In this document: piece by piece, positions 1-17,708 of the stretch
How the letters are laid out: every line of letters starts with the position of its first letter
How positions within the stretch are numbered: position 1 is the first letter of the stretch
Assembly: GCA_036265815.1 (NCBI GenBank)
Contig: DATAOI010000087.1
Location: 6,849 to 70,848, forward strand
Origin: Gemmatimonadales bacterium
GTDB lineage: Bacteria; Gemmatimonadota; Gemmatimonadetes; Gemmatimonadales; GWC2-71-9
Direction: 5' to 3'
DNA: 64,000 bases
Notes under the pieces: generated by a model
What the model saw: only the letters and a program-made list of their open reading frames with translations
The model's database searches: none
What the model was told of the DNA's origin: nothing
Translations under genes and position numbers: made by a program

Positions 1-907
1 ACCGCTCGTCCCAGCGGGCGTGTAACTCCTCGGGCAAGCCCTCTCCGGCCGAGGTGGCCAGGCGCAGGGAGGAGAGGTCCTGACGGCCGGCCTCGGGATG
101 ACTCACCATCTGGTTCACCATGGTGGGCACGGTGATCAGGATGGTGGGCCGGTTTCGGGCAATCCGGCTGAAGATCGCGTCCGCGGTGCAACGCTCGTCG
201 AACAGCACGCTGGCGGCGCCGGCCGCGAAGGGAAACAGGAGATTGGAGCCGGTAGCGTAGCCGAAGTAGAGCTTGGGCACCGAGAGCGTCACATCATCCT
301 CGGTATACCTGAGGACCTGCCGGGCGTAGCACTGTGCCGTGTTGACGAACGAGCGATGCGGCTGCACCGCTGCCTTGGGCCGACCGGTGGTGCCGCCGGA
401 GAAGAGCCAGATGGCTGCATCATCCGGGTGGGTGGGGTAGTTCCTCAGGGTCGCCGGTGCCGCGTCGAGCCGCGATCTCCAGTCGCTGCCGCCCACGACC
501 AGCAGCGCGGGTGCATGGGCAGCGTGGCGGCCCGCGGCGCCAAACGCGTCCGCGTGCACCGCGCCCACCAGCGCCACTGCGGCGCGGCTGTACTCGAAGA
601 AATACTCGATGGCCTCGGGCTTGAGCTCCGGGTTCACCATGACGACCACGGCGCCGATCTTGAGGATGCCGAACAGCGCCCCCACGTAGTCGGGCCCATC
701 GGGCAGGGCGATGATCACCCGCTGTTCCGGCGCCACTCCCGCCGAGTTCAGCAGGTTGGCATAGCGGTTGGCCAACGCCTGGACCTCACGATAGGTCCAC
801 CGTCCGGCATCGGTCACCAGCGCGGTCCGGTCGCCCCGGCCCTCGCGTACCCGGGCATCGAGGAAGAAGTCGGCGATGTTGAGACGGGCGGGATCGTCGG
901 TCGTCAT
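1..907 (-). CDS. Aryl-carboxylate--CoA ligase (benzoate/2-aminobenzoate-CoA ligase clade); C-terminal part lies outside the window
   Basis: My own translation of the minus strand from ATG at 907-905 gives MTTDDPARLNIADFFLDARV... It has the AMP-binding P-loop LFSGGTTGRPKA and KLYFGYATG, typical of benzoate-CoA ligases. The frame is open to the window edge, so it is absent from the ORF track. An alternative in-frame ATG lies at 946-944. Confidence 0.85.
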   Translation of the reverse strand, partial: MTTDDPARLNIADFFLDARVREGRGDRTALVTDAGRWTYREVQALANRYANLLNSAGVAPEQRVIIALPDGPDYVGALFGILKIGAVVVMVNPELKPEAIEYFFEYSRAAVALVGAVHADAFGAAGRHAAHAPALLVVGGSDWRSRLDAAPATLRNYPTHPDDAAIWLFSGGTTGRPKAAVQPHRSFVNTAQCYARQVLRYTEDDVTLSVPKLYFGYATGSNLLFPFAAGAASVLFDERCTADAIFSRIARNRPTILITVPTMVNQMVSHPEAGRQDLSSLRLATSAGEGLPEELHARWDER

Positions 908-1030
908 AGCACGTACACCTTGCGAGGCGGCCACCGGCCTCACCATTGACGTCCGAGGAGCGAGCCGCGAGAGGCCGGGCTGGGACCCGTCGGGCGGGAC
1001 CCGGTCGAGAAAGCGTCGGGGGCCTCCGCC

Positions 1031-1232
1031 ATCAGGTCGTCCCGCGAATCAAAATGCGCATAGAAGCCGCCATGGGTAAGCCCGGCGCGCTGCACTGGAT
1101 GAGCGGGAATCGAGGTCCGGGTTGACCATCACAACGGGTGCGCCGATCTTCAGAATGCGAGGCAGGGCCCCTATGTAATACCTCCGGCAGTCGAACCGTC
1201 CGAACATCGAGAAAGAACTCGGCGATATTTGC
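1031..1232 (-). pseudogene. Decayed relic of a second aryl-CoA ligase copy (internally deleted, frameshifted)
   Basis: Three minus-strand patches are colinear with the intact ligase. NIAEFFLD (about 1232-1195) matches NIADFFLD. YYIGALPRILKIGAPVVMVNPDL (about 1170-1098) matches DYVGALFGILKIGAVVVMVNPEL; nt 1116-1182 align with 627-693 at roughly three quarters identity by eye. GGFYAHFDSRDDLM (1078-1031) resembles the DGY..GR.DDM ligase box. The patches sit in different frames. Confidence 0.45.
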
Positions 1233-1996
1233 AGCCGCTCGCCGGAATGACCTGGGAAGACGCACGCGAGGCCGCGGGCCCGGGGTCCGCCGCCATTCTG
1301 CCGGTGGGCGCCATCGAGGCGCACGGTCCGCACCTGCCGCTCGAGACGGACGTGATCATCGCCCAGGCGATGGCGCGCGCCGGTGCCGCCCGGCTGAGCG
1401 CGCGGGGACTCCGGGTGGTCGTTCTCCCGCCGCTGACCTACACCGCCGCGGCATTTGCGCAGAACTTTGCGGGGACGCTCTCGCTTCGCCCGGAGACGGT
1501 CACGGCGACGGTGCGGGACATCGCCGCGTGCCTGGTACGGCATGAGTTCGGAGTGCTGGCCATCGCCAACGCGCATCTCGATCCGGAACACCTCGGCTCG
1601 CTCGATGCCGCCGCCGCCCTGATCCGACGCGATCTCGAGCTCGCGGTAGCATGTCCCAACCTCGCGGCCAAGCCGTGGGCCCTCCGGCTGGGGGACGAAT
1701 TCCGCAGCGGCGCGTGCCACGCAGGGCAGTTCGAGACGTCGGTCGTGCTGGCCGAACGGCCGGAGCTGGTCCGCGGGGCACTGATGGCCTCGCTGCCGGC
1801 GAACCCCGTCTCCCTGTCCCGTGCCATCCGCGATGGCAAGCGGAGCTTCGAGGAGGCGGGCGGCGCCCAGGCGTACTTCGGCTTTCCGGCCCAGGCGAGC
1901 GCCGAGGAGGGCCGGGCCACGATCGAGGTGCTCGGTCAGATTCTCGACGAAGCGGTGCAAGCCGAGCTCACCGCCAGGGCCGAGCAGACGAGATGA
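1229..1996 (+). CDS. Creatininase-fold amidohydrolase family protein
   Basis: 255-aa ORF with LPVGAIEAHGPHLPLETDVII, the metal-binding signature of the creatinine amidohydrolase / ArfB / MftE fold. An alternative start is MTWEDA at 1247. Its stop overlaps the next start (ATGA at 1993-1996). Confidence 0.8.
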   Translation: MQPLAGMTWEDAREAAGPGSAAILPVGAIEAHGPHLPLETDVIIAQAMARAGAARLSARGLRVVVLPPLTYTAAAFAQNFAGTLSLRPETVTATVRDIAACLVRHEFGVLAIANAHLDPEHLGSLDAAAALIRRDLELAVACPNLAAKPWALRLGDEFRSGACHAGQFETSVVLAERPELVRGALMASLPANPVSLSRAIRDGKRSFEEAGGAQAYFGFPAQASAEEGRATIEVLGQILDEAVQAELTARAEQTR

Positions 1997-3213
1997 GCTC
2001 CCTGAGCCGTGGAGTGGCTGTGGTGACCGGCGGCGGCCGCGGGATCGGAGCGGCCACCGCCCGCGCGCTGTCGGACGCCGGTCTCGATGTGGTCGTCGCC
2101 GCCCGCACGGGCGAGCAGATCGAGCGCCAGGCCGCCGCGCTGGTGGCCATGGGCCGCCGGGCGAGGGCGGTGGTCTGTGACGTGACCAGCGAAGCCAGCG
2201 TGGAGGCCCTCTCCCGCGCGGCGTCCGAGCTGGGACCGGTGGCGGTTCTGGTCAACAACGCGGGCGCCGCCGGGTCGATGCCTGTGGTCCGGACCTCGCT
2301 CGAGGATTGGAATCGGCTCCTGGCCATCAACGCCACCGGGGCCTTCCTATGCACCCGGGCGTTTCTCCCGGGGATGCTCGAGCGGCAGCAGGGCCGAGTG
2401 ATCAACGTGTCGTCGACGGCGGGTCTCCGCGGGGGGAAGTATCTCGCGGCCTACGCCGCTGCCAAGCACGCGCTGCTGGGTCTCACCCGGTCGGCGGCCG
2501 CCGAGGTTGCCGGCAGCGGGGTGACGGTGAACGCCGTCTGCCCCGGCTTCGTCGATACCGAGATGACATCCGAGACCGTGGCCAGGATCATGGCCAAGAC
2601 CGGCCGCACCCGCGAGGAAGCGCTGGCGGCCGCCCTCGACTCCGAGGGTCAGGTCCGCTTGATCGCGCCCGAAGAGGTGGCGGCGGCGGTGGTCTCGCTC
2701 GCCGCCACTGCGGTTCCCCATGCTCCCAACGGAGAGATCGTGGTCCTGGACGGGAGAGATCAGATGGCCGGCCGCTTCGCGATCATCAACCCCGAGGAGC
2801 TCGGTGCGCCCCGCGGCTGGAACAACGGGATGCTGGCGCACGCGGGGGGAAGGATGCTCTTCATCGCGGGCCAGACCGCGCGGGACAGCTCGGGGCGAGT
2901 GCCGGCCACCGACTTCGTCTCTCAGTTCGATCGGGCGTTGGACAACCTGCTCGCCGTCCTCCGCCATGCCGGCGGCGAGCCGGGTGACATCGGGCGATTC
3001 ACCATCTATGTCACCGACATGGCCCAGTACCGCGCGAGCCTCAAGTCCCTGGGCGAAGTGTACCGACGCCGGATGGGGACACACTACCCGGCGATGGCGC
3101 TGGTGGAGGTGACGTCGCTGGTGGATCCGCAGGCGGTGGTGGAGATCGAAGCAACCGCGGTGCTTGGGGCCAATCTCTCGGTCGATGGCGGGCAGCACAA
3201 GGGAAATCTGTGA
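1993..3213 (+). CDS. Fusion protein: short-chain dehydrogenase/reductase (N-terminal) + RidA/YjgF-family domain (C-terminal)
   Basis: The real start is MSSLSRGVAVVTGGGRGIGAA at ATG 1993; the track ORF 1651..3213 has a spurious N-extension. SDR motifs are TGGGRGIG, NNAG and YAAAKHAL. The same frame then continues into INPEELGAPRGWNNGML...FIAGQTARD...FTIYVTDM...ALVEVTSLVDPQAVVEIEATAV, which is RidA-like. Confidence 0.8.
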   Translation: MSSLSRGVAVVTGGGRGIGAATARALSDAGLDVVVAARTGEQIERQAAALVAMGRRARAVVCDVTSEASVEALSRAASELGPVAVLVNNAGAAGSMPVVRTSLEDWNRLLAINATGAFLCTRAFLPGMLERQQGRVINVSSTAGLRGGKYLAAYAAAKHALLGLTRSAAAEVAGSGVTVNAVCPGFVDTEMTSETVARIMAKTGRTREEALAAALDSEGQVRLIAPEEVAAAVVSLAATAVPHAPNGEIVVLDGRDQMAGRFAIINPEELGAPRGWNNGMLAHAGGRMLFIAGQTARDSSGRVPATDFVSQFDRALDNLLAVLRHAGGEPGDIGRFTIYVTDMAQYRASLKSLGEVYRRRMGTHYPAMALVEVTSLVDPQAVVEIEATAVLGANLSVDGGQHKGNL

Positions 3214-4013
3214 CGCCCCTGCATCCCAGGTCATTTCTCTACACCGTCGACCCGGCGACCGCCGTCGCCACGATCACGCTCAACCGGCCCGAGCGACTCA
3301 ATGCACTCACCTTCGAGGTCTACACCGAGCTCAGGGACACCTTCCGCGCACTCGACGCTGAGCCCGGCATTCGCGCCATCATCATCACCGGCACCGGGCG
3401 AGCCTTCTGCACCGGCGGAGATGTCGAGGACATCATCGGCGCGCTGTTCACCAGGGATGCCGCCGGATTGCTCGACTTCACCCGGCTCACGGGCGATCTC
3501 ATCCTCTCCATCCGCCAGTGTCGCCGCCCGGTGGTGGCGGCGCTCAACGGAACCGTGGCCGGCGCAGGAGCGGTGATCGCGGCGGCCAGCGACATCCGGA
3601 TCGCGGCGGAGAGCGCCAAGATCGCCTTTCTCTTCTCCCGGGTGGGCCTCACGGGCGCCGACATGGGCGCTGCCTGGCTGCTTCCTCGCATCGTCGGCAT
3701 GGCGCACGCGAGCGAGATCCTCATGCTGGGTGACTTTCTCAGCGCCGAGCGCGCAGTCCAGATCGGGCTCTACAACCGGGTGGTCCCCGCGGAGCGGCTG
3801 ATGGCCGAAGCCACCGAGGTCGCCAGCCGGCTGGCGCGGGGACCGTCGGTGGCGCTCGGCGTCACCAAGCAGGCGCTCAATGAGGAGGCCGCGATGACCC
3901 TGGTCTCCGCCCTCGAATGGGAGGCGAAGGCCCAAGCCGAGTGCATGCAGAACCCGAACTTCCGTGAAGCCTACGAGGCGTTCCGCGCCAAGCGCGAACC
4001 GAGGTTCGAGTAG
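3210..4013 (+). CDS. Enoyl-CoA hydratase/isomerase (crotonase) family
   Basis: ITLNRPERLNAL, GTGRAFCTGGDV and VAALNGTVAGAGAVIAAASDIRIA. The GTG start overlaps the upstream stop (GTGA). Confidence 0.9.
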   Translation: MTPLHPRSFLYTVDPATAVATITLNRPERLNALTFEVYTELRDTFRALDAEPGIRAIIITGTGRAFCTGGDVEDIIGALFTRDAAGLLDFTRLTGDLILSIRQCRRPVVAALNGTVAGAGAVIAAASDIRIAAESAKIAFLFSRVGLTGADMGAAWLLPRIVGMAHASEILMLGDFLSAERAVQIGLYNRVVPAERLMAEATEVASRLARGPSVALGVTKQALNEEAAMTLVSALEWEAKAQAECMQNPNFREAYEAFRAKREPRFE

Positions 4014-4016
4014 GTC

Positions 4017-5156
4017 ATGCCCGACGCGAAGCTGATCCGGACCTTTCTCGAGCCGCATCATCCGGTCTTCGCGGACCAAGCCAGGAGCTTCGCGACGGCT
4101 GAGATCGCTCCGCGCCCGGAGCCGGCCGACGATGCCGCGGCTCGGAAGGAGGCGCGCGAGCTGCTTGGCATACTCGGCGTGGGCGGGTGGCTCAAGCCGA
4201 TTCTCGATCTCGACCTCCGTGGCTGCTGCCTCATGCGAGAAGCACTCGCCGAAGTGTCCCCGCTCGCCGACGCGGTGTTTGCGCTGCAGGGGCTTGGCAC
4301 CACGCCGATTCTGTTGGGCGGAACGCAGGCGCAGAAGGACCGATGGCTTGGACCGATTGCCGAGGGCAAGGTCATGACCGCCTTCGCGATGACCGAGGCC
4401 GAGGCGGGGTCGGACGTGGCCGCCATTGCCAGCAACGCGCGGCACGAGGGATCAGGATACGTCATCACCGGAGCCAAGACTCTGATCTCCAACGCCGGCA
4501 TCGCCGATCTCTACATCGTGTTCGCCTCCACCGACCGGCCTAAGGGTGCCAAAGGGATCAGCTGCTTCCTGGTGCCGGCCAACACGTTCGGACTCCGGTT
4601 CCGCCCTCAGGTGCTGAGCGCGCCGCATCCGTTGGGTCAGATCGCCTTCGAGGACTGCCGGGTTCCTGCCGATGCGCTGCTCGGCGACGAGGGACGCGGG
4701 TACGGGCTCGGCCTCGCGGCACTGGACCGGTTGCGGCCGACCGTGGCGGCCGCGGCCTGCGGCATGGCGGCTCGCGCGCTCGCCGAATCACTCGCTCACG
4801 TGAAGCAGCGGAAGCAATTCGGCACCGCCCTGGCCCAATTCCAGCTGGTCCAGCAGAAGCTCGCCCGGATGGCCACCGATCTCACGGCCGCGCGGCTCCT
4901 CACCTATCAGGCGGCCTATGAGAAGGACCAGGGACAGGAGCGAATCACCCGCGAGGCCGCCATGGCCAAATCCTTCGCGACCGAGATGGCCCAGCGGGCT
5001 GTTGACGACGCGGTGCAGCTCATCGGAGGACGCGGCGTGCTGGCCGATCATCCAGTGGAGCGACTGTACCGCGCCGTGCGGGCGCTCCGGATCTACGAGG
5101 GCACGACGGAGATTCAGCAATTGATCATCGCAGGGGAGCTCCTGAAGGAAGGCTGA
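4017..5156 (+). CDS. Acyl-CoA dehydrogenase
   Basis: [28 protein letters not shown] and the C-terminal [18 protein letters not shown]. It starts 3 nt after the crotonase stop. Confidence 0.9.
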
Positions 5157-5216
5157 CGTGGCTCCCCGGTAGCTGCTGGCCCGGCTGACGGCGGCCGTTA
5201 GCTTTAGCCTTGAGCC

Positions 5217-6668
5217 ATGTGGCATCCCGATCCCTTCGTCAAGTATCCGATCCCGGAGACGCATCCACCCACGCTGGCGGACGCGGCGCGATCGCTCTGG
5301 TTCAGCCCACTCGAGTGCGGCCGGCTCGAGCTGCGGGAGCGCACCTGGGTTCCCGCCATGGTGCCGTGGCGGGCGACCGCTGACGGAGTGGTGACACCCG
5401 AGGTGCTCGCGTGGTACGAGCGGTTCGCGCGAGGGCAGCCCGGGGCTCTGGTGGTCGAGGCCACCGGGATCCGCGACATTCCCAGCGGACCGCTCCTCCG
5501 GATCGGAGACGACCGGTTCATTCCCGGCCTGGGGGAGCTGGTGCGCACCGTCCGGCAGGCGAGCGGTGGCCGGACTCGGCTGTTCATCCAGATCATCGAC
5601 TTCCTCCGGATCCGCCGCCGCCCCGAGCCGGAGCGATACTTCCGGGAGTTCCTGGTCCTCACTGAGCGGCACCGCACTCTAGTGCCGGGCAGCGACGACG
5701 CCATCCGGGAGACCCTGGCGCGAATGCCGGAGGCGGAGTGGCCCCGGTTCCTCACTGAGCGCGAGCTGGAGAGCCTGCGATTCGGCGAGCGGGAACGAGT
5801 TACGGATACCGGGCTGCCCCACATCCGGGAGCTGCCGCGCGTCTTGCCGGGGCTGTTCGCTCGAGCGGCGGCCCGCGCGGAGGAGGCGGGGTTCGACGGG
5901 GTGGAGCTGCACTGCGCCCACGCCTACACCATGGCGTCGTTTCTCTCCACCCTCAACCAGCGCGACGATGGCTACGGCGGGTCGCGCGCGGAGCGGGTGA
6001 AGTTGCCGCTCGAGGTCTTCCACGCGGTGCGGCAGAACGTAAGCCAGCGATTCGTGGTCGGGTGCCGGTTCCTGGCCGAGGAATGTATCCCGGGCGGTTA
6101 CACGTCCGAGGATGCCGCCTGGTTCGGCGCCCAGTTCGCGCGGGCGGGAATGGACTACCTCTCGCTCTCTCGAGGGGGCAAGTTCGAGGACGCCAAGCAG
6201 CCGCGGGTGGGCTGGGCCCGGTATCCCTACACCGGACCCAGCGGGTACGAGTGCATGCCGACCGTCCGATCGGATGAACGGGGACCGTTCGGCCGGAACC
6301 GGGAGGCCACCCGCGCGGTGCGGGACGCGGTACTCGCCGCGGGGTGCCGGACGCCGGTCGTCTTGTCGGGTGGCATCTCGACGTTCGAGCAGGCGGAGGA
6401 GCTGCTGCGGGACGGCGCCGCCGACATCATCGCCTCGGCACGACAGAGCCTGGCGGATCCCGACTGGTTCCGGAAGCTCAGGCTCGGCCTGGGCGGCGAA
6501 GTGCGGCGCTGTGTCTTCACCAACTACTGTGAGGGCCTCGACCAGGTGCACAAGCCCGTGACCTGCAAGCTCTGGGATCACCTCGAACTCGACGGCGACG
6601 ATCCGCCGCGCCCCGCCATCGGCCGCCGCCGGTTGGTGGCCCCGCCGTGGGAGCCGGCCGCCAGGTGA
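5217..6668 (+). CDS. Old-yellow-enzyme (OYE) family NADH:flavin oxidoreductase, atypical
   Basis: [44 protein letters not shown] is the OYE TIM-barrel core. A C-terminal [19 protein letters not shown] resembles the FadH Fe-S motif but has only 3 Cys. Confidence 0.8.
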
Positions 6669-8923
6669 GAGTCGCCATCGTAGGGGCGGGGCCCGCCGGC
6701 CTCTATCTCGCCATCCTGCTCAAGCGCGACGACCCCAGCCACCAGGTGACGGTCTATGAGCGGAACCGGGTGGAGGACACGTTCGGCTTCGGGGTGGTGT
6801 TCTCGGACGAGACGCTGGAGAACGTCGGCGAGGCCGATCCCGACACCAACGACGCAATGGCCGCCGCTGCCGCGCGCTGGGAGGAGATCGAGATCCACTA
6901 CCGCGGCACGGTCATGCGCTCCACCGGGCATCGCTTCTCGGGCGTGGAACGGAAGACCCTGCTGGACCTGCTGGCCCGGCGGGCGCAATCGCTGGGCGTC
7001 GAGGTTCAGTGGCAGCGCGAGATTCGAGATCTCACCGACTGCGGCCTTCCCGCCGCCGATCTGATCGTCGCGGCGGACGGCGTGGCCAGCCTGATCCGCG
7101 ACCAGCTGTCTGACACATTCCAACCTCAGCTCGACTGGCGCTACAACCGCTTCGTCTGGCTCGGCAGCGCCCGAGCGTTTCCCGCGTTCACCTTCTACTT
7201 CAAGCCTTCGCCGGCCGGGCTCTGGCGCACCCATGCCTATCAGTATGCTCCCGGACGCTCGACCTTCATCGTGGAGGCCAGGGAAGACACCTGGCAGGCG
7301 AGTGGACTCGACGCGAACGACGAGCGGGGCACCGTCGCGTACCTGGAGCGGCTCTTCCAGGACGAGCTGCAGGGCCATCCGCTGGTGGCCAACCGCTCCA
7401 TCTGGCGCCGGTTTCCCACGGTCCGGAACGCGCGCTGGCACTCGGGGAACGTGGTGCTGCTGGGCGACGCCGCCCACACGGCGCACTTCTCGGTCGGCTC
7501 CGGCACCAAGCTCGCGATGGAAGACGCCATCGCGCTGGCGGCGGCGCTCCGAGCCGAGCGATCGATTCCCGGCGCGCTCGCCAGCTACGAGGCGAGCCGG
7601 CGGCCGCAGGTGGAAAGCCTCCAGCGCGCGGCCCAGGCGAGCCTCGAGTGGTTCGAATCGGTGGAACGTTACCACGATACCGAGCCGCTGCAGTTCGCCT
7701 TCAATCTGCTCACCCGCAGCCTCCGCATCACCCATGAGAACCTGAAGGTTCGCGATCCCGCCCTGGTGAGCCAGGTCGACCGCTGGTTCGCCGAGCAGGC
7801 TGCCAGGCAGAGCGGGCGTCCGGTGACGCTCGAGCCGTGTCCTCCACCCTTGTTCACCCCCTACCGGCTTCGCGAGCTGGTGCTGCCCAACCGGATCGTG
7901 GTCTCCTCGATGTGCCAGTACCGGGCGGAGGACGGGCTTCCGAACGACTGGCACCTGGTCCACCTGGGCAGCCGGGCCATCGGCGGCGCCGGGCTGGTGA
8001 TGACGGAGATGACCGACGTGAGCCGGGAAGGCCGGATCTCCCCCGGCTGCGCCGGGATGTATCTCCCGGGTCATGTTGCCGCATGGCGGCGGATCGTGGA
8101 GTTCGTGCATCAAGGGAGCGAGGCCAAGCTCGGCCTGCAGCTCTCGCACGCGGGGAGGAAGGGATCGACCTGCCGGCTGTGGGAGGGCGAGGATGAGCCG
8201 CTGCCCGACGGGAACTGGCCGCTGATCGCGCCGTCTCCCATCCCCTACCGTTCCCACAACCAGATCCCCCGGGAGATGACCCGGGCCGACATGGACCAGG
8301 TCGCCGCCGACTTCGTCCGGGCCACCGGCATGGCCGACGCTGCCGGGTTCGACCTCCTGGAGCTCCACCTCGCGCATGGGTACCTGCTGGCTTCGTTCAT
8401 CTCGCCTCTCACCAACCGGCGAACCGACGAGTATGGCGGATCCCTCACCAACCGAATGCGCTACCCGCTGGAGATCGTGACCCGGGTCCGCGCCGAGTGG
8501 CCTCAGGCCAAGCCGCTGTCCGTCAGGATCTCGGCCGTCGACTGGGCGCCCGGCGGCACGGAGGCGCACGATGCGGTGGAGGTAGCGCGGATGGTGGTTG
8601 CCGCGGGGGCCGACATCGTGGACGTCTCCGCGGGCCAGACCGTCCCCGAAGCGAAGCCGGTCTACGGTCGGCAGTTCCAGACCCCGTTCAGCGACCGGGT
8701 CCGGCATGAGGCGCGGGTGCCGACGATGACGGTGGGGAACATCTCATCCCCCGCGGACGTCAACACCATCCTGGCCGCCGGCCGGGCGGATCTGGTGGTG
8801 CTGGCGCGAGCGCACCTGTGGGACCCGTACTGGACCCGGCACGCGGCCGCCGACCTGGGGTACACGCTTCCCTGGCCGCCGGAGTACGCAACCTTGAACC
8901 GGTACACTCCCCGACTGCGGTAG
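6647..8923 (+). CDS. Bifunctional FAD-dependent aromatic-ring monooxygenase :: OYE-type reductase (2-aminobenzoyl-CoA monooxygenase/reductase or salicylyl-CoA 5-hydroxylase architecture)
   Basis: N-terminal half: [17 protein letters not shown] (GxGxxG) and [27 protein letters not shown]-terminal half: [40 protein letters not shown]. The likely true start is GTG 6665, overlapping the upstream stop (GTGA). Confidence 0.85.
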
Positions 8924-9001
8924 ATCCGGCTCGGCGTTGCGTGCGCGTCGCCGCGGCTGTTGCTACTCTTGTGTTGCCTCCCCTTGCGAAGAGACCACCG
9001 G

Positions 9002-9781
9002 ATGCCCTCGTACGCCGAATACCTGAAGGTCAATGAGCTGCTCGCGCTCCAGTGTCCTCTGTCGGAGGGCCCGGAGCACGACGAGATGCTCTTCATCGTG
9101 ATCCATCAGGTGTACGAGCTCTGGTTCAAGGAGATCCTCCACGAGCTGGATCACCTCCAGGATCTGCTCTCCCGCAACGACGGCGCCAGGGCCCGGGGCA
9201 CACTCAAGCGCATTCTGACCATCCTCAAGGTGATGGTGGCGCAGCTCGACATCCTGGAAACGATGACGCCACTCGAGTTCCTGTCGTTCCGTGACCGGCT
9301 GGAGTCGGGGAGCGGGTTCCAATCGTTCCAGTTCCGCGAGCTGGAGTTCGCGCTGGGATGGAAGGATCAGAAGGCGGTGGAGCGCCACCCGGCGGGGAGC
9401 GAGGTCCGCCGGCGGTTGGAGCGACGGCTGCACTCACCCTCGCTCTGGGATGGCTTCCTGCGCCATCTGGCTGCCGGCGGCGTCCCGGTGCCCCGGAGCG
9501 ACCTGGAGCGGGACGTGACCCGGCGAGTGGAGCCCTCCCCCGGTCTCCGCGATGCGTTGATTGCCGTGTACCGCAGCCAATCGGCGGAGGCAGAGCTGTG
9601 CGAACGGCTGGTGGATCTCGATGAAGGCATCATGGAGTGGCGCTACCGGCACGTGAAGATGGTGCAGCGGACCATCGGCACCCGCCGTGGCACCGGGGGA
9701 AGCGCGGGCGCGGACTACCTGCTGGCCACACTCAATCAGCCACTGTTTCCGGATCTGTGGGCCATCAGGACCGAGCTCTGA
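9002..9781 (+). CDS. kynA: Tryptophan 2,3-dioxygenase
   Basis: MPSYAEYLKVNELLALQCPLS..HDEMLFIVIHQVYELWFKEILHELD and WRYRHVKMVQRTIG. ATG 9002 is preferred over the TTG at 8960 used by the track. Confidence 0.9.
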   Translation: MPSYAEYLKVNELLALQCPLSEGPEHDEMLFIVIHQVYELWFKEILHELDHLQDLLSRNDGARARGTLKRILTILKVMVAQLDILETMTPLEFLSFRDRLESGSGFQSFQFRELEFALGWKDQKAVERHPAGSEVRRRLERRLHSPSLWDGFLRHLAAGGVPVPRSDLERDVTRRVEPSPGLRDALIAVYRSQSAEAELCERLVDLDEGIMEWRYRHVKMVQRTIGTRRGTGGSAGADYLLATLNQPLFPDLWAIRTEL

Positions 9782-9795
9782 GCCTCGCCAGGGCC

Positions 9796-10992
9796 ATGGA
9801 CCCCGCCTCCCTCTTCGCCTCTCCCAACGCTCTCGCGCCACACTATTCCCGCTTCGGGGTCGCACAGCGACTGCTGCTCACCGGGCACTCCCACCAGGCC
9901 TGGCCGGACTGCGCCTTGGAAGGCCAGGTGAAGGCCTGGGAAGACGCGGCGCGCTACGTCGACGAGAAGTGGGAACACGCGCTGGCTCGAGCCGAGCGGG
10001 TGCGCGAGGGATTCGCCCGGCTCCTGGGAGACGCGGGCGGAGGGATAGCGCTGGGAGCGAACACCCACGAGCTGGTGGTCCGTCTGCTCTCCGCTTTGCC
10101 GCTGGGCACGCGACCCCGGCTGGTGACCACCGACGGTGAGTTCCACAGCATCCGCCGTCAGCTGGATCGCCTGGAGGAGGCAGGTCTCACCGTTGTCCGC
10201 ATCCCCCAGGCCCCCCACCAATCACTGGCTGCCCGGCTGAGCGGCGCGGTAGATGATCGGACGGCCCTGGTGCTGGTCTCTGCCGTCTTCTTCGATACCG
10301 GGCGCATGGCCCACGGGCTCGCCGACGTGGCCGCGAGCTGCCGGCGGCACGGCAGCAGTCTGCTGGTGGACGCGTATCATGCGCTCGACGTCGTGCCGTT
10401 CTCGGTCACGGACGAGGGACTCGGCGACGCGTTCATCGTTGGCGGCGGATACAAGTACTGTCAGCTCGGGGAGGGCAACTGCTTTCTGAGGATCCCGGCG
10501 GACTGCGAGCTTCGCCCCGTAGTGACCGGGTGGTTCAGCGAGTTCACCGTGCTGACGGACCGGCAGCGCGTGGAGCGAGTGGCCTATGGGCAGGGCGGCG
10601 ACCGATTCGCCGGCGCGACCTACGATCCGACCAGTCATTATCGCGCCGTTTCCGTCTTCGAGTTTTTCCGGGAGCGCGGGCTCACGCCTCAGCTCCTCAG
10701 GGCGGTGAGTCAGCACCAGGTCGGGCTGCTCGCCTCCACCTTCGACGCCCTCGATCTCGATCCCGCGATCGTGCGCCGCGACCGCGAGTGCCCGCTCGGC
10801 GAGATCGGTGGTTTCCTCGCTCTCCGAAGCCCGGTGGCGGCCGCTCTGGTGCGTGAGCTCCGGGCGCGAGGCGTGTGGACCGATGCCCGAGGGGATGTCC
10901 TACGGCTCGGCCCGGCGCCATATCTGTCGGACCGGCAGCTGCGCGATGCGGTCGGATTGCTGGGAGAGGCGGCGCGGGGGCATGCCGGCTGA
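9796..10992 (+). CDS. kynU: Kynureninase-family PLP-dependent hydrolase (class V aminotransferase fold)
   Basis: The start is MDPASLF at ATG 9796; the track ORF 9637.. has a spurious extension. GGGYKYCQLGEGNCFL matches the kynureninase PLP-lysine box (xYKYLNxGPG). The gene lies directly downstream of kynA. Confidence 0.7.
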   Translation: MDPASLFASPNALAPHYSRFGVAQRLLLTGHSHQAWPDCALEGQVKAWEDAARYVDEKWEHALARAERVREGFARLLGDAGGGIALGANTHELVVRLLSALPLGTRPRLVTTDGEFHSIRRQLDRLEEAGLTVVRIPQAPHQSLAARLSGAVDDRTALVLVSAVFFDTGRMAHGLADVAASCRRHGSSLLVDAYHALDVVPFSVTDEGLGDAFIVGGGYKYCQLGEGNCFLRIPADCELRPVVTGWFSEFTVLTDRQRVERVAYGQGGDRFAGATYDPTSHYRAVSVFEFFRERGLTPQLLRAVSQHQVGLLASTFDALDLDPAIVRRDRECPLGEIGGFLALRSPVAAALVRELRARGVWTDARGDVLRLGPAPYLSDRQLRDAVGLLGEAARGHAG

Positions 10993-11821
10993 ACAGGAGC
11001 TCCCGCGCAGGCCCGGACGCGTCGCGGCTGGGTTGCTGCTCGCCGGGTTGATCGGTGTGCTCGGCTGGAATGCCTACCAGCTGGCCGTGGCGTACCGCGA
11101 GTTCGCCGGGCTGTCCGAGCGGCTGCCGAGCCTTCCCCCGGTGCATGCCGCAACCCGTCGGCGCGAGCCCCCCTTTCCCGTGAAGCTGTGGCTCCACCGA
11201 GTCAACAGCGTCCAGCGCGCCGCGCGGATGGCCAGGAAATACGGCGGCCTGGAAATCGACGTGATGTTCGACTCCGCGGCCGGGTATTTCGATGTGGGGC
11301 ACCCTCCGGTTCCATCGGTGGGTTTGTCCCTCGACAGCCTGTTGGCGGCCGTTCCCGATATCACCGATCACTACTTCTGGCTCGACTTCAAGAATCTGAC
11401 CGACGGCAACGCAGCGGCCGCGTGCGGAGTGCTGCTCGCCATCGCTCGGAGACGCGGCGTCGTGAGCCACACCGTCGTGGAGTCGACCAATCCGAGAGCG
11501 CTCGCCTGCTTCACCGCGAACGGGTTCTATACCTCGTACTACCTCTTCCCCGATCTCGATCCGCACACGATGGCACCGGACGCATTGAGGAAGTACTACG
11601 AGGGTGTGAGGGCCAACCTGGCCGCCAGCGACGTGAACGCCCTGTCCTCGAGCTATCGCTCGCTTCCTTTCATCGAGGCGTACTTCCCCGACAGCGACGT
11701 CCTGCTCTGGTATCTGGAGCCGCGCGGGAGCCTGCGCGCCCGGGCGGCGCTGGCGTATCTCACGCGGGAGCCGCGGGTGAAGGTGATTCTGGTCAAGGAG
11801 TACAGCCGCGGATATCGCTGA
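10982..11821 (+). CDS. Membrane-anchored PLC-like/GDPD-superfamily phosphodiesterase (tentative)
   Basis: The start is MPAEQELPRRPGRVAAGLLLAGLIGVLGW, with one N-terminal TM helix. LWLHRVNS...GGLEIDVMFD...FDVGH resembles the HR / ExD / H catalytic pattern of glycerophosphodiester phosphodiesterases. It overlaps the kynU stop by 11 nt. Confidence 0.45.
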   Translation: MPAEQELPRRPGRVAAGLLLAGLIGVLGWNAYQLAVAYREFAGLSERLPSLPPVHAATRRREPPFPVKLWLHRVNSVQRAARMARKYGGLEIDVMFDSAAGYFDVGHPPVPSVGLSLDSLLAAVPDITDHYFWLDFKNLTDGNAAAACGVLLAIARRRGVVSHTVVESTNPRALACFTANGFYTSYYLFPDLDPHTMAPDALRKYYEGVRANLAASDVNALSSSYRSLPFIEAYFPDSDVLLWYLEPRGSLRARAALAYLTREPRVKVILVKEYSRGYR

Positions 11822-14159: not shown

Positions 14160-15059
14160 TCATCGCAGCTGGCGGGACTGGCAGGACGGCTCCCCATACC
14201 GGATCCCCATGGGCCGACTCAATCCGTCGGCCAGCGCCCGCAGATCGGGCCGCTCGCGGGGGATGTTTTCGTGCCCCCGTCCATTCGGCTCGATCGTGGC
14301 CGTCCCCGTCTTCGAGATTCCCGGGAACACCTTGACCTGCCCCCGCACCACCTGCCATTGATCGCTGGAGACCGCGAGGCGGGTCTGCTTGAGGTCCGGC
14401 TTGCCCAAGACCGCGAACACCGCCGAAAGGAAGCCGACCGGCCGCACGGAAATGCCCTTCACCTGATCGAACACGAGCATGTCCTCGTACTCCAGCAGCT
14501 TGAATCGGATGACCCGGCTGTCGTACACATCCATTTTGGGCACGGACAGGGTGTCCTTATAGCTGAAATGGGAAGGCGCGCCCGCCGAGTCGGGCCAGAA
14601 GATGGTCACGTCCAGCGCGAGGAGCGGGGCAGGGCCTTCCAGCACCTGTGCCACCACCTGGGGGCCGTAGTCGATCAGCGCATCCTGATGGTGCTCGAAT
14701 CCCGCCCTGGCCGACTCCGACATATCCCCATAGGTCACCCCCGCCGTCTCGAGGTGAGCGCTGAACCAATCGTCCTGCTTGACGATCAATTGGGTGCTCC
14801 CCGGCGACTCCCGCTGCCGCCGCCGGACGAGCGCGAGGAGCGCCTCGGCTCCGAACCGCATCGACGTGGTGGTGCTGGTGAGACTGTAGGCCCCGTGGGT
14901 CCGCATCGCCTCCAGGATCTCCTGCCGGGAGACGCGGTATGGCTCGGCGCACGCTCGGTGGCCCGGCCGGGGAAGGTTCGCGCTGAGCGCAGGCGCAATC
15001 ACCGTCAGCGCGATCGCGGCCGGGTTAGAGAATCGTCGAAGCATCTGCAGGAGTGTCAT
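14160..15059 (-). CDS. Hypothetical exported protein
   Basis: MTLLQMLRRFSNPAAIALTVIAPALSA is a signal peptide, and the remaining composition is protein-like. I recognised no family. The gene is divergent from the BlaI-like gene. Confidence 0.6.
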   Translation of the reverse strand: MTLLQMLRRFSNPAAIALTVIAPALSANLPRPGHRACAEPYRVSRQEILEAMRTHGAYSLTSTTTSMRFGAEALLALVRRRQRESPGSTQLIVKQDDWFSAHLETAGVTYGDMSESARAGFEHHQDALIDYGPQVVAQVLEGPAPLLALDVTIFWPDSAGAPSHFSYKDTLSVPKMDVYDSRVIRFKLLEYEDMLVFDQVKGISVRPVGFLSAVFAVLGKPDLKQTRLAVSSDQWQVVRGQVKVFPGISKTGTATIEPNGRGHENIPRERPDLRALADGLSRPMGIRYGEPSCQSRQLR

Positions 15060-15148
15060 GCATTCTTTGGATGAGCTGGTCGGTGGCCGCCTGGATCCCA
15101 GTTGCGCTGCGTGGCAGCTCCTCAAGGTAGCCAAGTCAGGCGGAGCCC

Positions 15149-15181
15149 TTGACTTTTCCTGGCCTCTGCTGAAATATCAGC
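15149..15181 (+). promoter_or_regulatory. Sigma70-like promoter with overlapping palindromic operator upstream of the BlaI-like gene
   Basis: TTGACT (15149-15154), a 17-nt spacer, then AAATAT (15172-15177). The near-palindrome GCTGAAATATCAGC (15168-15181) covers the -10 box. Confidence 0.4.
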
Positions 15182-15222
15182 ACAGCGTCACCGTTCATAC
15201 TCTCAGGTCCAAGGCCACCGCC

Positions 15223-15624
15223 ATGCCCCAGCGCCCCCCTGTCGAAGACCTCAGCCGCCGCGAGCGGCAGGTGATGGAGATCCTGCATCGGCGGGGCGAG
15301 TCCACCGTCACCGAGATCATGCAGAGCCTTCCCGACCCGCCCAGCTATTCCGCGGTCCGCTCCATCCTGCGGATCCTGGGGGAGAAGAAGCTGATCTCCC
15401 ACAGGGAGGACGGGCCCCGGTACGTCTACCTGACGGCCCGTCCGACCGACAAGGCCCGGGATGACGTCCTCGCGCACGTCGTGCGCACCTATTTTGCCGG
15501 CTCGACCGAGCAGGCGGTCACGGCGCTGCTGCGGCTTTCCGACGCCGACCTGGACGAGGCCGAGATCGGCCGGCTCCGGGAGAAGATCCGCCGCGCGCGG
15601 CGGAACGAGAGCGGGAGGTCATGA
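15223..15624 (+). CDS. BlaI/MecI/CopY-family transcriptional repressor
   Basis: The start is MPQRPPVEDLSRRERQVMEIL. The winged-helix region is STVTEIMQSL...YSAVRSILRILGEKKLISHREDGPRYVY. Its stop overlaps the next start (ATGA). Confidence 0.9.
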   Translation: MPQRPPVEDLSRRERQVMEILHRRGESTVTEIMQSLPDPPSYSAVRSILRILGEKKLISHREDGPRYVYLTARPTDKARDDVLAHVVRTYFAGSTEQAVTALLRLSDADLDEAEIGRLREKIRRARRNESGRS

Positions 15625-17585
15625 TGTCGACATCCATTCCAGACCTGCTCTCCTGGGTCACGGCAGCACCATTGGGCCTGTCGATTCTGCTGGTGCTTCT
15701 GAAGGTCACCTGTCTGCTTCTGGCCGCGATCGGCGCCTCGCTCGCAATGTCGCGCGCCTCGGCGGGCGCCCGGCATCTGGTCTGGGTCGTGGTGCTTGGC
15801 GCGCTCCTTGTCCTCCCCGCACTCGCCATGTGGGCCCCCCTCCCGGTCCGGATGCTTCCCCAGTCCGTATCACCGACAATTGCATCGAGCATGGCAGGAG
15901 CGCTTGTCGGCCCCGAAATCACCCGTTCGCTGCGGCAGCAGAGCAGCGCTGCTCCTGAAGCCGCGGGCCCCGCCGCCTCGTCCGCATCGCGGTCTCGCGC
16001 CGCGATCGGGCCGTCGTTCGGGCTCGGGACCGTACTGTTGCTCGGCTGGGTGCTGGGCGCTCTCGCGCTGATCCTGAGGCTCGCCCACGGCGCGTACGCT
16101 GTGCGGCGCATCCTCCGCCGGGCCGAGCCGCTGGAGCACCCGGACTGGCAGACGCCGTTGTACCAGGTCGCCGATCGCCTGGGCGTGCCCGTCATTCCGC
16201 GGCTGGTCCGCAGCGAGGATGTGAAGATGCCCTTTGCGAGCGGCCTTATTGCTCCCGCCGTCGTGCTTCCCGCCGAATGCGAGCAGTGGAGCGCCGAGCG
16301 GCGGAGCGCCGTGCTGGTGCACGAGCTGGGGCACGTCCGTCGGCGCGACCTGGCCGGTCACACGATCGGCCGGATCGCCTGCGCCCTCTATTGGTTTCAC
16401 CCGCTGGTGTGGACGGCCGCCCGGCGGCTCCGCACCGAGAGCGAGCGGGCCTGCGACGACCTGGCGCTGGTCCTCGGTGCCCGGCCCAGCGACTACGCCG
16501 AGCATCTGCTGGACCTGGTGACGGGCGTGCGCGATCACTACACGCCGTCGCTCGCCCTTGCGATGGCGCACCGAAAGGAGTTCGAGGGACGCATGCTGGC
16601 TATTCTCGACCCCGCGCTCCGTCGCAAGGGGCCGAATCGGAGGCAGACCGCCGTGATCGTCGGTGCGCTCGCCATCCTCGCCTCTTTCGTCGGTGCAGCG
16701 ACGCCGGTGCCACGCACCGCGTCTCACTCGCTCCCCTCGCATGCTGAAGCGCCACGCAGCGCGCCGGTTCAACCGGTCCAGCCACCGCCGGACGCTGCCC
16801 CCCAACCCGCGGCAATCGCGATCCCGACCCGAGCCTCGCCAGCCGTCACCGCCCGCGAGGAGCCCGGCGACGACAGGGCGGCGCTGCTCGCCAGGACACT
16901 CCGCACCGATACGAGCGCCCCGGTTCGGCGGGTGGCCGCGTGGGGACTCCAGCGGTACGTCGAGGTCGATGTCGCGATCGAGGCCCTCGCCTCCGCGGCC
17001 GGGACCGATGCCGACGCGGAGGTGCGTGAGATGGCGGTGTGGGCCCTGGCCGATGCACGACCGGGCTCGACCGTCGTGCTGGCGGCCCTGGCCAAGGCCG
17101 TCCGGCTGGACCGGGACCCGAAGGTTCGCGCGACGGCAGTGTGGGCACTGGGCTCGATCGGCGACGAAAACGCCGTGGAGACCTTGACGGGCGTCCTCAG
17201 GAGCCCCGATCCCACGCTACGGGAGGTCGCGGCCTGGTCGATCGGCTCCTGCGAGCCGAGCCGGGCGCCGGCCGCGCTGTCGAGCGCGCTGTCGGACCGA
17301 GATCGCAACGTGCGCGAATCGGTGGCCTGGGCGCTCTACACGATCGGGGATCCCCGGACGGCCGGCGCCATCGATTCCGCGCTTCGGCGCGAGCAGGACC
17401 CCGAGGTGCAGCACGGCCTCATCCGGGCGCTCGGTGCCGTGGGGGAGGGCTCGGTGGAGGCCTTCCAGCGACTCGTATCATCCCCGGACGCCGAAGTGCG
17501 AGGGATGGCCGTGGCCGCGCTGGCCGGCGGAGACGCCTCCGGTCCCTGGCCCTGGCCCCGCCCGGAGCCTCGGCCGTTTCCGTGA
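15621..17585 (+). CDS. BlaR1-like M56 zinc-metallopeptidase signal transducer with C-terminal HEAT-repeat domain
   Basis: Several TM helices, HELGH at 16320-16334, and a fourth TM helix (TAVIVGALAILASFVGAA). These are followed by a Pro-rich linker and about 7 HEAT-like units (VRxxAxWAL). The tail is GPWPWPRPEPRPFP. Confidence 0.85.
   Translation: MMSTSIPDLLSWVTAAPLGLSILLVLLKVTCLLLAAIGASLAMSRASAGARHLVWVVVLGALLVLPALAMWAPLPVRMLPQSVSPTIASSMAGALVGPEITRSLRQQSSAAPEAAGPAASSASRSRAAIGPSFGLGTVLLLGWVLGALALILRLAHGAYAVRRILRRAEPLEHPDWQTPLYQVADRLGVPVIPRLVRSEDVKMPFASGLIAPAVVLPAECEQWSAERRSAVLVHELGHVRRRDLAGHTIGRIACALYWFHPLVWTAARRLRTESERACDDLALVLGARPSDYAEHLLDLVTGVRDHYTPSLALAMAHRKEFEGRMLAILDPALRRKGPNRRQTAVIVGALAILASFVGAATPVPRTASHSLPSHAEAPRSAPVQPVQPPPDAAPQPAAIAIPTRASPAVTAREEPGDDRAALLARTLRTDTSAPVRRVAAWGLQRYVEVDVAIEALASAAGTDADAEVREMAVWALADARPGSTVVLAALAKAVRLDRDPKVRATAVWALGSIGDENAVETLTGVLRSPDPTLREVAAWSIGSCEPSRAPAALSSALSDRDRNVRESVAWALYTIGDPRTAGAIDSALRREQDPEVQHGLIRALGAVGEGSVEAFQRLVSSPDAEVRGMAVAALAGGDASGPWPWPRPEPRPFP
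16881..17528 (+). repeat. Tandem HEAT-like (PBS-lyase type) coding repeats, about 31 aa period
   Basis: Recurrent units: VRRVAAWGL, VREMAVWAL, VRATAVWALGSIGD, LREVAAWSIG, VRESVAWALYTIGD, VRGMAVAALAG. Confidence 0.7.
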
Positions 17586-17708
17586 TCGGGCGCGGCTGAC
17601 GCGAACGGGCGCGGCGTGACGCAGGGTGTCGCGCTTCGCCCGTTGCTTCGGCCCATGAGTGCTGAAATTTCAACATCACATCGATCATCCTCCTCTGTGG
17701 AGCAGACC

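Follow-up and report, generated by a model that had tools for sequence, protein, structure and literature searches.

Operon organization and proposed pathway

A 64,000-nucleotide stretch of the genome of an uncultured Gemmatimonadales bacterium (metagenome-assembled contig DATAOI010000087.1, positions 6,849 to 70,848, referred to here as the window; G+C 66-73%) begins with a set of genes that, judged by their sequences and context, likely constitute a catabolic operon in which the upper kynurenine pathway is linked to aerobic, CoA-dependent degradation of anthranilate. The latter pathway has been known since the early 1990s, and its understanding stops after the step of 2-aminobenzoyl-CoA monooxygenase/reductase (ACMR). 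The initial annotation of this DNA had read the locus as a route from tryptophan through anthranilate and anthraniloyl-CoA to a dearomatised ester, and this reading is supported by the gene content and by a gene order that recurs in at least 20 species-level genomes.

Eight genes run on one strand from 1229 to 10992, as seen from the open reading frame (ORF) listing and from direct reading of the junctions, and an aryl-CoA ligase gene is divergent to them (Table 1). Three junctions are 4-nt start/stop overlaps, ATGA at 1993-1996 and GTGA at 3210-3213 and 6665-6668. The other gaps are 3 nt (4013/4017), 60 nt (5156/5217), 78 nt (8923/9002) and 14 nt (9781/9796); the 78-nt gap between the ACMR gene and the gene of tryptophan 2,3-dioxygenase (TDO) shrinks to 36 nt if the latter starts at a TTG codon at 8960. 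Strands, overlaps and gaps are all as first described. Family calls were made from Pfam and NCBIfam profile scores against curated cutoffs; they upheld the domain assignments previously given to the nine ORFs, the kynureninase being a divergent one.

In the proposed pathway, TDO would open the indole ring of L-tryptophan to yield N-formylkynurenine, and the divergent kynureninase (KynU-like) would release L-alanine and the anthranilate unit. The formyl group may be removed by the creatininase-fold amidohydrolase from N-formylkynurenine, N-formylanthranilate or its CoA ester, in either order with the kynureninase and with release of formate. The ligase would make 2-aminobenzoyl-CoA, which the fusion of an FAD monooxygenase with an Old Yellow Enzyme (OYE) domain, with or without the stand-alone OYE, is predicted to hydroxylate and reduce to 2-amino-5-oxocyclohex-1-ene-1-carbonyl-CoA. 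Hydrolysis of the enamine or imine by the Rid domain would then give cyclohexanedione-carbonyl-CoA and NH3. Finally, the short-chain dehydrogenase/reductase (SDR), the PaaG-like crotonase (as an isomerase or a ring-opening hydrolase) and the acyl-CoA dehydrogenase (ACAD) may open the alicyclic CoA ester without oxygenolytic cleavage, leading to a C7 dicarboxyl-CoA and beyond. The substrates and the order of these late steps are those that we would assign from the gene families.

Conservation of the gene order

To follow this arrangement across genomes, the fusion protein was scanned against one genome per species, giving 80 loci at 55-80% identity that were compared with all window proteins in a tblastn matrix; 48 of the 80 are well flanked (loci are numbered with the prefix L). 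In 20 of these 48 species-representative loci, the whole set from the ligase to kynU surrounds the ACMR gene, nearly always in the same order, and the window order was also present in seven of eight suitable metagenome contigs. The initial annotation had named a gene order kept in no relative as the finding that would speak against it; instead, in at least 20 species-level genomes TDO and the kynU-like gene come directly 3' of the fusion gene, with spacings of 8-80 nt. Complete chromosomes of Longimicrobiales and Palauibacter on which the cluster is found include OX639991, OX638356, OZ242008 and NZ_CBDBNY010000004. The conserved arrangement exceeds chance.

Two cluster types can be distinguished. 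Type 1 (Gemmatimonadales, Longimicrobiales, Palauibacter, Eisenbacteria) has the divergent ligase followed by the creatininase-fold gene, SDR, Rid, crotonase, ACAD, ACMR, TDO and kynU. In type 2 (Alpha- and Betaproteobacteria, Caulobacter and others), Rid, ligase, ACAD, crotonase, MarR and SDR genes lie divergent to or beside ACMR, with neither a creatininase-fold gene nor kyn genes. The type-2 core of SDR, crotonase, ACAD and Rid with ACMR was found in the proteobacterial loci L055, L064, L065, L070, L074 and L081. Among the 25 well-flanked loci that have neither the creatininase-fold gene nor kyn genes, nine hold the full beta-oxidation-like core and 16 hold none of the accessory genes.

Table 1. 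Features of the operon region, with positions in the window and the basis of each assignment
Feature	Position	Strand	Basis
Aryl-CoA ligase, N-terminal 302 aa (gene cut by window edge)	1..907	-	PF00501 211 bits, TIGR02262
Divergent intergenic region, 321 nt	908..1228	.	sequence reading
Creatininase-fold metal amidohydrolase, 255 aa	1229..1996	+	PF02633 182.9 bits
SDR::Rid fusion, 406 aa	1993..3213	+	adh_short 197.8 bits and Ribonuc_L-PSP (PF01042) 69.8 bits in one ORF
Crotonase-superfamily protein, PaaG-like, 267 aa	3210..4013	+	ECH_1 194 bits; NF006107 369.6 bits (cutoff 330)
Acyl-CoA dehydrogenase, 379 aa	4017..5156	+	all three ACAD domains
Stand-alone OYE flavoprotein with insertions, 483 aa	5217..6668	+	partial Oxidored_FMN match
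FAD-monooxygenase::OYE fusion (ACMR family), 752 aa	6665..8923	+	FAD_binding_3 and Oxidored_FMN; NF006101
Tryptophan 2,3-dioxygenase KynA, 259 aa (alternative TTG start 8960)	9002..9781	+	PF03301 212 bits
Divergent kynureninase-family pyridoxal phosphate (PLP) enzyme, KynU-like, 398 aa	9796..10992	+	borderline KYNU_C 27.9 bits

Proposed enzymes of tryptophan cleavage

The KynA protein matches the solved bacterial TDO 2nox over its full length (E=1.3e-55). It keeps the motifs FIV(Q/I)HQ and WR(F/Y)RH, which we take to be the sites of the distal and proximal His, and scores 277.6 bits on TIGR03036, under the cutoff of 390.7. From the match to 2nox and the kept His motifs the protein is assigned as a bona fide tryptophan 2,3-dioxygenase.

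The neighbouring PLP enzyme was less straightforward to place. As a single sequence it retrieved IscS as the best match in the PDB, weakly. A profile of 11 members of its subfamily, however, put the kynureninase of P. fluorescens (1qz9) first (E=1.5e-19, full length), with human kynureninase next, and in the alignment the Tyr-Lys motif for PLP, like the motifs that contain Asp and Arg, is in register with 1qz9. The gene product thus appears to belong to a divergent kynureninase subfamily. In the tblastn matrix its gene adjoins TDO in every conserved-order locus. Soil metagenomes are very rich in close homologues; those with a named source come from Gemmatimonadales metagenome-assembled genomes (MAGs), and some JGI and NCBI records label close homologues as kynureninase. 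One locus of Gemmatimonadota (L012) encodes at 51-2267, on the minus strand, a second and canonical kynureninase (Aminotran_5 and KYNU_C; 1qz9 at E=5.5e-44) together with a 3-hydroxyacyl-CoA dehydrogenase; this gene is divergent to that of the subfamily kynureninase, which sits upstream of the ligase, and TDO was not found in that locus.

The canonical pathway has a kynurenine formamidase, KynB, between these two enzymes. Neither the cyclase-like nor the alpha/beta-hydrolase type was found in the operon or among the genes inserted into related operons. Cyclase-type KynB and thiolase were likewise missing from the larger ORFs between about 1 and 60 kb of the window in a non-exhaustive scan, which agrees with the first description that no thiolase and no canonical formamidase are visible. 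The sole alpha/beta hydrolase noted in the window, at 47523-48416, is remote from the operon. Genes inserted between ACMR, TDO and kynU of relatives were considered as hidden formamidases and rejected, as they encode a PAS sensor, a Na/Ca exchanger, MscS, a kinase, an ankyrin protein and a methylase.

The aryl-CoA ligase

Because the window edge cuts the ligase gene, its full-length orthologue in L010 was used for scoring; the TIGR02262 score is 476.7 bits (cutoff 375). In an identity matrix the ligases of ACMR clusters and related loci fall into two clades, both above this cutoff. Clade A unites the Arthrobacter enzyme with the type-2 (proteobacterial) ligases at 51-59% mutual identity, the Arthrobacter pAL1 ligase being 54% identical to one of the latter. 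Clade B comprises the window type and ligases beside distant creatininase-fold genes, and is 33-34% identical to clade A. By this measure the window ligase is not of the AbmG type and appears to belong to a clade distinct from both AbmG and the Arthrobacter enzyme.

Among solved structures, clade B comes closest to the Burkholderia benzoate-CoA ligase 2v7b (412 bits) and the anthranilate-CoA ligase 4wv3/AuaEII (373 bits). The ligase of Arthrobacter sp. Rue61a plasmid pAL1 is an experimentally proven anthranilate-CoA ligase (PMC3534580), and 2-aminobenzoate is a reported substrate of the benzoate-CoA ligases from Azoarcus and Thauera (PMC8388817). Since such benzoate-CoA ligases reportedly take 2-aminobenzoate, and since 2v7b and 4wv3 are the nearest structures, anthranilate is a plausible substrate of clade B.

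The putative ACMR fusion and the stand-alone OYE

The fusion protein scores 1110.6 bits on NF006101 (cutoff 1078), with residues 1-744 covering positions 1-748 of the 768 in the model. A GxGxxG motif lies at the N-terminus, followed by FAD_binding_3 at residues 131-321 and Oxidored_FMN at 396-730. The nearest genome locus is that of a Gemmatimonadota MAG (80% identity), and the protein is 52% identical to the putative ACMR of Arthrobacter pAL1. We propose it as a candidate 2-aminobenzoyl-CoA monooxygenase/reductase, an assignment supported by the presence of Rid, TDO and kynU in the operon. A cultured member of the phylum, Gemmatirosa kalamazoonensis, has an ACMR homologue on plasmid 2 (L082; NZ_CP007130.1:1034191-1036524; 54% identity) with SDR and crotonase genes nearby. 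Its locus has no kyn genes and no creatininase-fold arrangement, which makes it a possible cultivable comparison and not a direct test organism.

The stand-alone OYE belongs to the YqjM/TsOYE class; the HxxH motif and Tyr are kept, and about 85 aa are inserted. Few relatives have it (L002, L018, L043, L072, L033 and L121), and we regard it as accessory, probably an ene-reductase, because it is present in only this handful of loci. In the window its gene appears to be translationally coupled to that of ACMR through the GTGA overlap. Orthologues of this OYE also occur beside stand-alone FAD monooxygenases, in both gene orders, at L117:12331-14891, L123:6192-8753 and L165:1227-3891. The window OYE is 65% identical to those of L117 and L123, and the L117 monooxygenase aligns to ACMR residues 1-376 with 45% identity. 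This adjacency suggests that split ACMR systems exist and that the window OYE corresponds to their reductase half. Here, it probably acts as an auxiliary reductase.

Rid, SDR, crotonase and acyl-CoA dehydrogenase

A single SDR::Rid gene occurs in the window and in 4 of 31 relatives; elsewhere the two proteins are encoded by separate neighbouring genes. The Rid domain of the window (2788-3213) has Met at the canonical Arg105 position (YPAMALVEV). Across the Rid proteins of 46 aligned ACMR clusters of both types, Arg105 occurs in none; the residue is mostly Met, otherwise Thr, Ile or Val, and a (Y/F)PAMxLVEV motif is conserved around it. In archetypal RidA, a 2-iminoacid deaminase, Arg105 binds the substrate carboxylate (PMC4433059). 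Because the Rid proteins of ACMR clusters have no Arg105, their substrate is likely to be without an alpha-carboxylate, and the loss probably fits a substrate that is a thioester and not an amino acid. Judged from the alignment, these proteins form a dedicated, uncharacterised Rid subfamily.

The predicted product of ACMR is an enamine, and Rid hydrolysis of a thioester enamine or imine would be chemically sensible; this reaction is not mentioned in a survey of the Rid family (PMC4433059). Anthranilate-grown Arthrobacter accumulates a C7H8O4-CoA ester that was interpreted as cyclohexanedione-carboxyl-CoA (PMC3534580), which would be the product expected from deamination.

The crotonase has as its best solved relative 3g64, an uncharacterised protein of S. 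coelicolor, followed by PaaG (4fzw_C). The Glu pair of enoyl-CoA hydratases is absent, and an Asp aligns at one PaaG position, presumably that of the catalytic Asp of PaaG. The nearest NCBIfam models of the ACAD are acryloyl-CoA, glutaryl-CoA and cyclohexane-1-carbonyl-CoA dehydrogenases, all under cutoff, and its gene is kept in both cluster types. The SDR matches the BadH model, also under cutoff. Since neither cluster type includes a thiolase, hydrolytic ring opening by the crotonase (as in BadI/Oah) or the participation of housekeeping thiolases is suggested.

The initial annotation had nominated the co-operonic genes for these late steps. The nomination holds to the extent that the same gene set recurs beside ACMR, but the candidates are not new, as the Azoarcus-type set is already present in proteobacterial loci. 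Indeed, in the work of Schuhle et al. in 2001 the SDR, crotonase, ACAD and Rid genes of the Azoarcus evansii abm clusters were reportedly linked to ACMR already. A review confirms that the Azoarcus authors attributed the later steps to enzymes of beta-oxidation (PMC4539516).

The creatininase-fold protein

Three curated models of the PF02633 family score under cutoff on this protein: creatininase TIGR04448 at 88.3 of 235 bits, MftE TIGR03964 at 95.3 of 172, and IolN NF041098 at 27.8 of 245. The metal and catalytic residues E, H, D, H, H and E align to those of creatininase 1q3k/1j2t, with Glu122 replaced by Asp. The protein can be assigned to a PF02633 subfamily of its own, tied to one clade of aryl-CoA ligases.

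The initial annotation drew no connection between this gene and the missing formamidase. Since no KynB is present, the associations of the gene were examined beyond this lineage. An exhaustive search of representative proteins gave 141 relatives at E<1e-30, in many small groups of 35-48% identity. Metagenome contigs were then scanned with an alignment of the distant groups, and the matches were re-annotated. The distant creatininase-fold genes lie directly downstream of a clade-B ligase in 14 of the 18 metagenome loci with enough upstream sequence, and the two genes often overlap (L092, L104, L127). On seven further contigs with precomputed Pfam labels (Planctomycetota, Blastocatellales, Pseudohongiellaceae and others), a ligase is 0-4 kb upstream in all seven. 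TDO and/or a canonical kynureninase stand beside the pair, with ACMR absent, in L090, L092, L109, L110, L112, L164, L167 and L169; in L165 and L140 the pair is found within an ACMR-type cluster that has no kyn genes. The constant unit is therefore the clade-B ligase with the creatininase-fold hydrolase, repeatedly recruited beside kynurenine-pathway genes in at least three phyla.

Several side observations concern this unit. A 4HBT hotdog thioesterase gene is directly downstream of the pair in five distant loci (L089, L091, L101, L109, L118), and a GNAT acetyltransferase gene lies between the two genes in L091 and L101. A Peptidase_M24/AMP_N gene (Xaa-Pro aminopeptidase-like) precedes the region of kynU, TDO, ligase and creatininase-fold gene on a Planctomycetota-like contig (L164:1-418), and another stands immediately before the ligase on a Pseudohongiellaceae contig (L166:5131-6432). 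In both L164 and L166, DUF480 is downstream of the creatininase-fold gene.

The type-2 clusters run the CoA pathway without a creatininase-fold gene, so it seems dispensable after ACMR. In the simplest reading, the enzyme would supply the free amine to the ligase or ACMR as an aryl-formamide or N-acyl-anthranilate amidohydrolase, a role that we suggest tentatively and with somewhat less than even confidence. PF02633 includes archaeal ArfB, a formamide hydrolase. Kynureninases are able to cleave N-formylkynurenine, and both orders of deformylation were considered above.

A serious rival is that the enzyme is not a formamidase and serves the clade-B ligase in some other way while the rest of the pathway stands; the rival is serious because the creatininase-fold gene follows the ligase more closely than it follows TDO, and we hold it as a real possibility short of an even chance. 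The enzyme might free anthranilate from other N-acyl-anthranilates, hydrolyse amides that arise as by-products of the activated acyl-adenylate or thioester, deacylate the ligase or, like IolN, cleave a ring intermediate, and N-formylkynurenine would be deformylated spontaneously or by an enzyme encoded elsewhere. The adjacency to the ligase (the 14 of 18 loci and seven of seven contigs above) is far more constant than that to TDO or kynU, the pair occurs in a split-ACMR cluster without kyn genes (L165) and alone (L166, L168, L170), acetyltransferase and thioesterase genes accompany it in some loci, and there is the weak NCBIfam similarity to the IolN ring hydrolase. Against such a role, proteobacterial abm-type clusters dispense with the gene, so that nothing downstream of ACMR needs it; in about 10 independent non-ACMR contexts the pair has TDO or kynureninase within 9 kb, far more often than a random 16-20 kb neighbourhood would give; and no other formamidase candidate was found in any cluster examined.

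A broader formulation goes further, namely that the protein represents a third, non-orthologous class of aryl-formamidase, co-inherited with a new anthranilate-CoA ligase clade in Gemmatimonadota, Planctomycetota, Acidobacteriota and Gammaproteobacteria, and acting together with an Arg-less thioester Rid deaminase. We regard this as possible but somewhat doubtful. If true, the formamidase class and the Arg-less Rid would define a widespread soil route that leads tryptophan into the ACMR pathway.

Counter-evidence and alternative substrates

A number of observations weigh against the operon as we read it. The model that the fusion protein matches, NF006101, is named bifunctional salicylyl-CoA 5-hydroxylase/oxidoreductase, and sequence alone does not separate ACMR from SdgC, the salicylyl-CoA 5-hydroxylase, because all compared homologues from outside the lineage are about 52-54% identical to the window protein. 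The window-type ligase, represented by its L010 orthologue, is only 33% identical to the proven anthranilate-CoA ligase of Arthrobacter. As a single sequence, the kynureninase just exceeds the KYNU_C cutoff of 27 bits and has no NCBIfam match. The cluster lacks a thiolase and a regulator. A weak terminator-like hairpin, CGGCTGACGGCGGCCG, with a T-rich tail lies at 5182-5197 in the gap between ACAD and OYE; matches in the promoter and terminator scan were not above the expectation from shuffled sequence.

Further points concern the creatininase-fold gene. It follows the ligase more tightly than it does TDO or kynU, it is present without a nearby kyn gene in L036, L044, L165, L166, L168 and L170, and L019 and L053 carry kyn genes without it. 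Among the 48 well-flanked ACMR loci, 20 have both the creatininase-fold and kyn genes, one the former alone, two the latter alone and 25 neither, a co-occurrence that is confounded by phylogeny.

The fusion and the ligase could instead use salicylate or a different ortho-substituted benzoate, in the manner of SdgC, with kynA and kynU being merely neighbours of an unrelated aromatic-acid operon. The name of NF006101 agrees with this, as does the benzoate-CoA ligase 2v7b as the best solved relative of the ligase; moreover, the 16 well-flanked loci of ACMR homologues without any accessory gene indicate that the family is used in other contexts. Identity was uninformative for the choice between ACMR and SdgC, since plasmid-borne homologues from Streptomyces, Arthrobacter, Ralstonia, Phyllobacterium and Gemmatirosa are all at about 53-54%. 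The close spacing of TDO and kynU behind the fusion gene in the species-level genomes described above is difficult to reconcile with a chance neighbourhood, and the same ligase clade accompanies TDO or kynureninase in other phyla. A Rid protein, for which salicylate offers no role, is kept in all such clusters. No gentisate 1,2-dioxygenase, FAH-type hydrolase or thioesterase was found in the window, unlike in Arthrobacter pAL1. The gene content fits anthranilate over salicylate because the Rid domain is present, gentisate dioxygenase and thioesterase are absent and the TDO is bona fide, and we consider the salicylate reading improbable.

Anthraniloyl-CoA could also be made from tryptophan for biosynthesis of a quinolone, an aurachin-like compound or another product, and not for catabolism. 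AuaEII, which we take to be the ligase of aurachin biosynthesis, is the second-best solved relative of the window ligase, and there is a published Pseudomonas case in which kynurenine-pathway genes feed anthraniloyl-CoA into quinolone signal synthesis. No condensing enzyme, polyketide synthase, non-ribosomal peptide synthetase or prenyltransferase was found in or near the cluster, the flanking genes are housekeeping or unrelated ones, and the cluster itself combines a dearomatising ACMR with ACAD, crotonase, SDR and Rid. A biosynthetic function thus seems very improbable, and catabolism of tryptophan through anthranilate is the reading that we retain.

Intergenic regions and flanking genes

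The spacer between the ligase and the operon, 321 nt in the window as against 20-70 nt in most relatives, presumably carries the promoters of both. A promoter scan found no sigma-70-like site in it. A k-mer search gave a motif, CCATTGAC, common to six related loci, as a weak match. The spacer also has TCA(A/G)AATGCG twice, as TCAAAATGCG and TCAGAATGCG, 101 nt apart, and TCAAAATGCG overlaps the 8-bp palindrome ATGCGCAT. Within the operon, the 60-nt gap between ACAD and OYE is the sole sizeable one in the upstream half, and it marks the point where OYE is inserted relative to most relatives.

Downstream of the kynureninase, an ORF at 10982-11821 on the plus strand was considered as a member of the system and rejected; it lacks a Pfam match, and none of the 80 loci has a counterpart. 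It shows high third-position GC, an 11-nt overlap with the kynureninase stop and an N-terminal hydrophobic segment, and is also called on a second contig (L001). The genes between 10982 and about 60 kb are unrelated to the pathway (hypothetical, sulfatase-family, BlaI/BlaR1-like, HEAT-repeat, peptidase, multicopper oxidase and others). At 15058-19052 there are a BlaI-like repressor, a BlaR1 (M56) sensor fused to HEAT repeats and a second HEAT-repeat protein, and further on, at 22980-26534, a minus-strand ORF of 1184 aa without a Pfam match. Neither a MarR regulator nor an ABC substrate-binding protein was found in window positions 1-28.6 kb, the region past the ligase being cut by the window edge. 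The proteobacterial locus L074 and the metagenome locus L123 do have MarR.

Significance

In soil bacteria that are abundant but uncultured, the locus would give the CoA-dependent anthranilate pathway a physiological starting compound, tryptophan. It also offers a compact and conserved gene set for in vitro reconstitution of the steps after ACMR, by which an old problem is made testable and nothing is overturned. The activities that it nominates are a creatininase-fold aryl-formamidase, a thioester-enamine Rid deaminase, a second clade of anthranilate-CoA ligases and a split ACMR. In addition, the automatic names 'salicylyl-CoA 5-hydroxylase', 'creatinine amidohydrolase' and 'cysteine desulfurase' are likely to be misleading for thousands of metagenomic proteins.

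Searches of the open-access literature gave no earlier description of an ACMR cluster with kynA and kynU attached, nor of the clade-B ligase, its module with the creatininase-fold gene or the Arg-less Rid subfamily of ACMR clusters. The same literature gave no link between creatininase and formamidase and no resolved pathway downstream of ACMR. The candidate genes for the downstream steps, having been linked to ACMR in Azoarcus, are no part of what is new here.

Comparison with known systems

The closest general precedent is the abm system of Azoarcus. It combines an ACMR fusion with an aryl-CoA ligase, SDR, crotonase, ACAD and a YjgF/Rid protein, a set that was seen here in the proteobacterial loci. 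The window adds kynA and kynU to this set, along with a creatininase-fold hydrolase and a further OYE, and its SDR and Rid are fused. Its ligase also belongs to the other clade (33-34% identity), there is no MarR or ABC binding protein in the cluster, and the phylum is Gemmatimonadota.

The bacterial kynA-kynB-kynU pathway was reportedly described by Kurnasov et al. in 2003 for Pseudomonas, Bacillus cereus and Cupriavidus. As in that pathway, TDO in the window adjoins a kynureninase-family PLP enzyme and is close to solved bacterial TDOs. In contrast, the window cluster has no KynB of either type and its kynureninase is divergent, and anthranilate would enter the CoA pathway in place of anthranilate dioxygenase and catechol.

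The creatininase-fold protein shares its fold and its metal and catalytic residues with the PF02633 members creatininase, MftE and IolN. Within this family the archaeal ArfB is a precedent for hydrolysis of an aryl-type formamide. For the late steps, the BadH/BadI/BadK and PaaG pathways similarly employ SDR, crotonase and ACAD on ring CoA esters. No window protein reaches an equivalog cutoff of these pathways, however, and the amino/oxo pattern of the ACMR product is unique.

In Streptomyces sp. WA46, sdgABCD encodes SdgC, a salicylyl-CoA 5-hydroxylase, and the route leads to the aromatic gentisyl-CoA, followed by ring cleavage of gentisate. The fusion family is the same, and an ortho-substituted benzoate is likewise activated to its CoA ester. 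Unlike Sdg, the window cluster has no cupin (gentisate 1,2-) dioxygenase and no second ligase to make up a two-step salicylyl-AMP/CoA ligase pair, and Rid, TDO and kynU are foreign to the Sdg route. The plasmid pAL1 of Arthrobacter Rue61a also places a ligase, there the proven anthranilate-CoA ligase, next to the 52%-identical ACMR homologue and close to a Rid-family gene. In this strain, CoA esters were detected that would fit hydroxyanthraniloyl-CoA and cyclohexanedione-carboxyl-CoA (PMC3534580). There, anthranilate comes from quinaldine and not from tryptophan, and the locus (L083, 22136-29049) has genes for a thioesterase, a cupin and an FAH-family protein in place of SDR, crotonase and ACAD, which suggests a route that shares the first two steps and then leaves in another, gentisate-like way.

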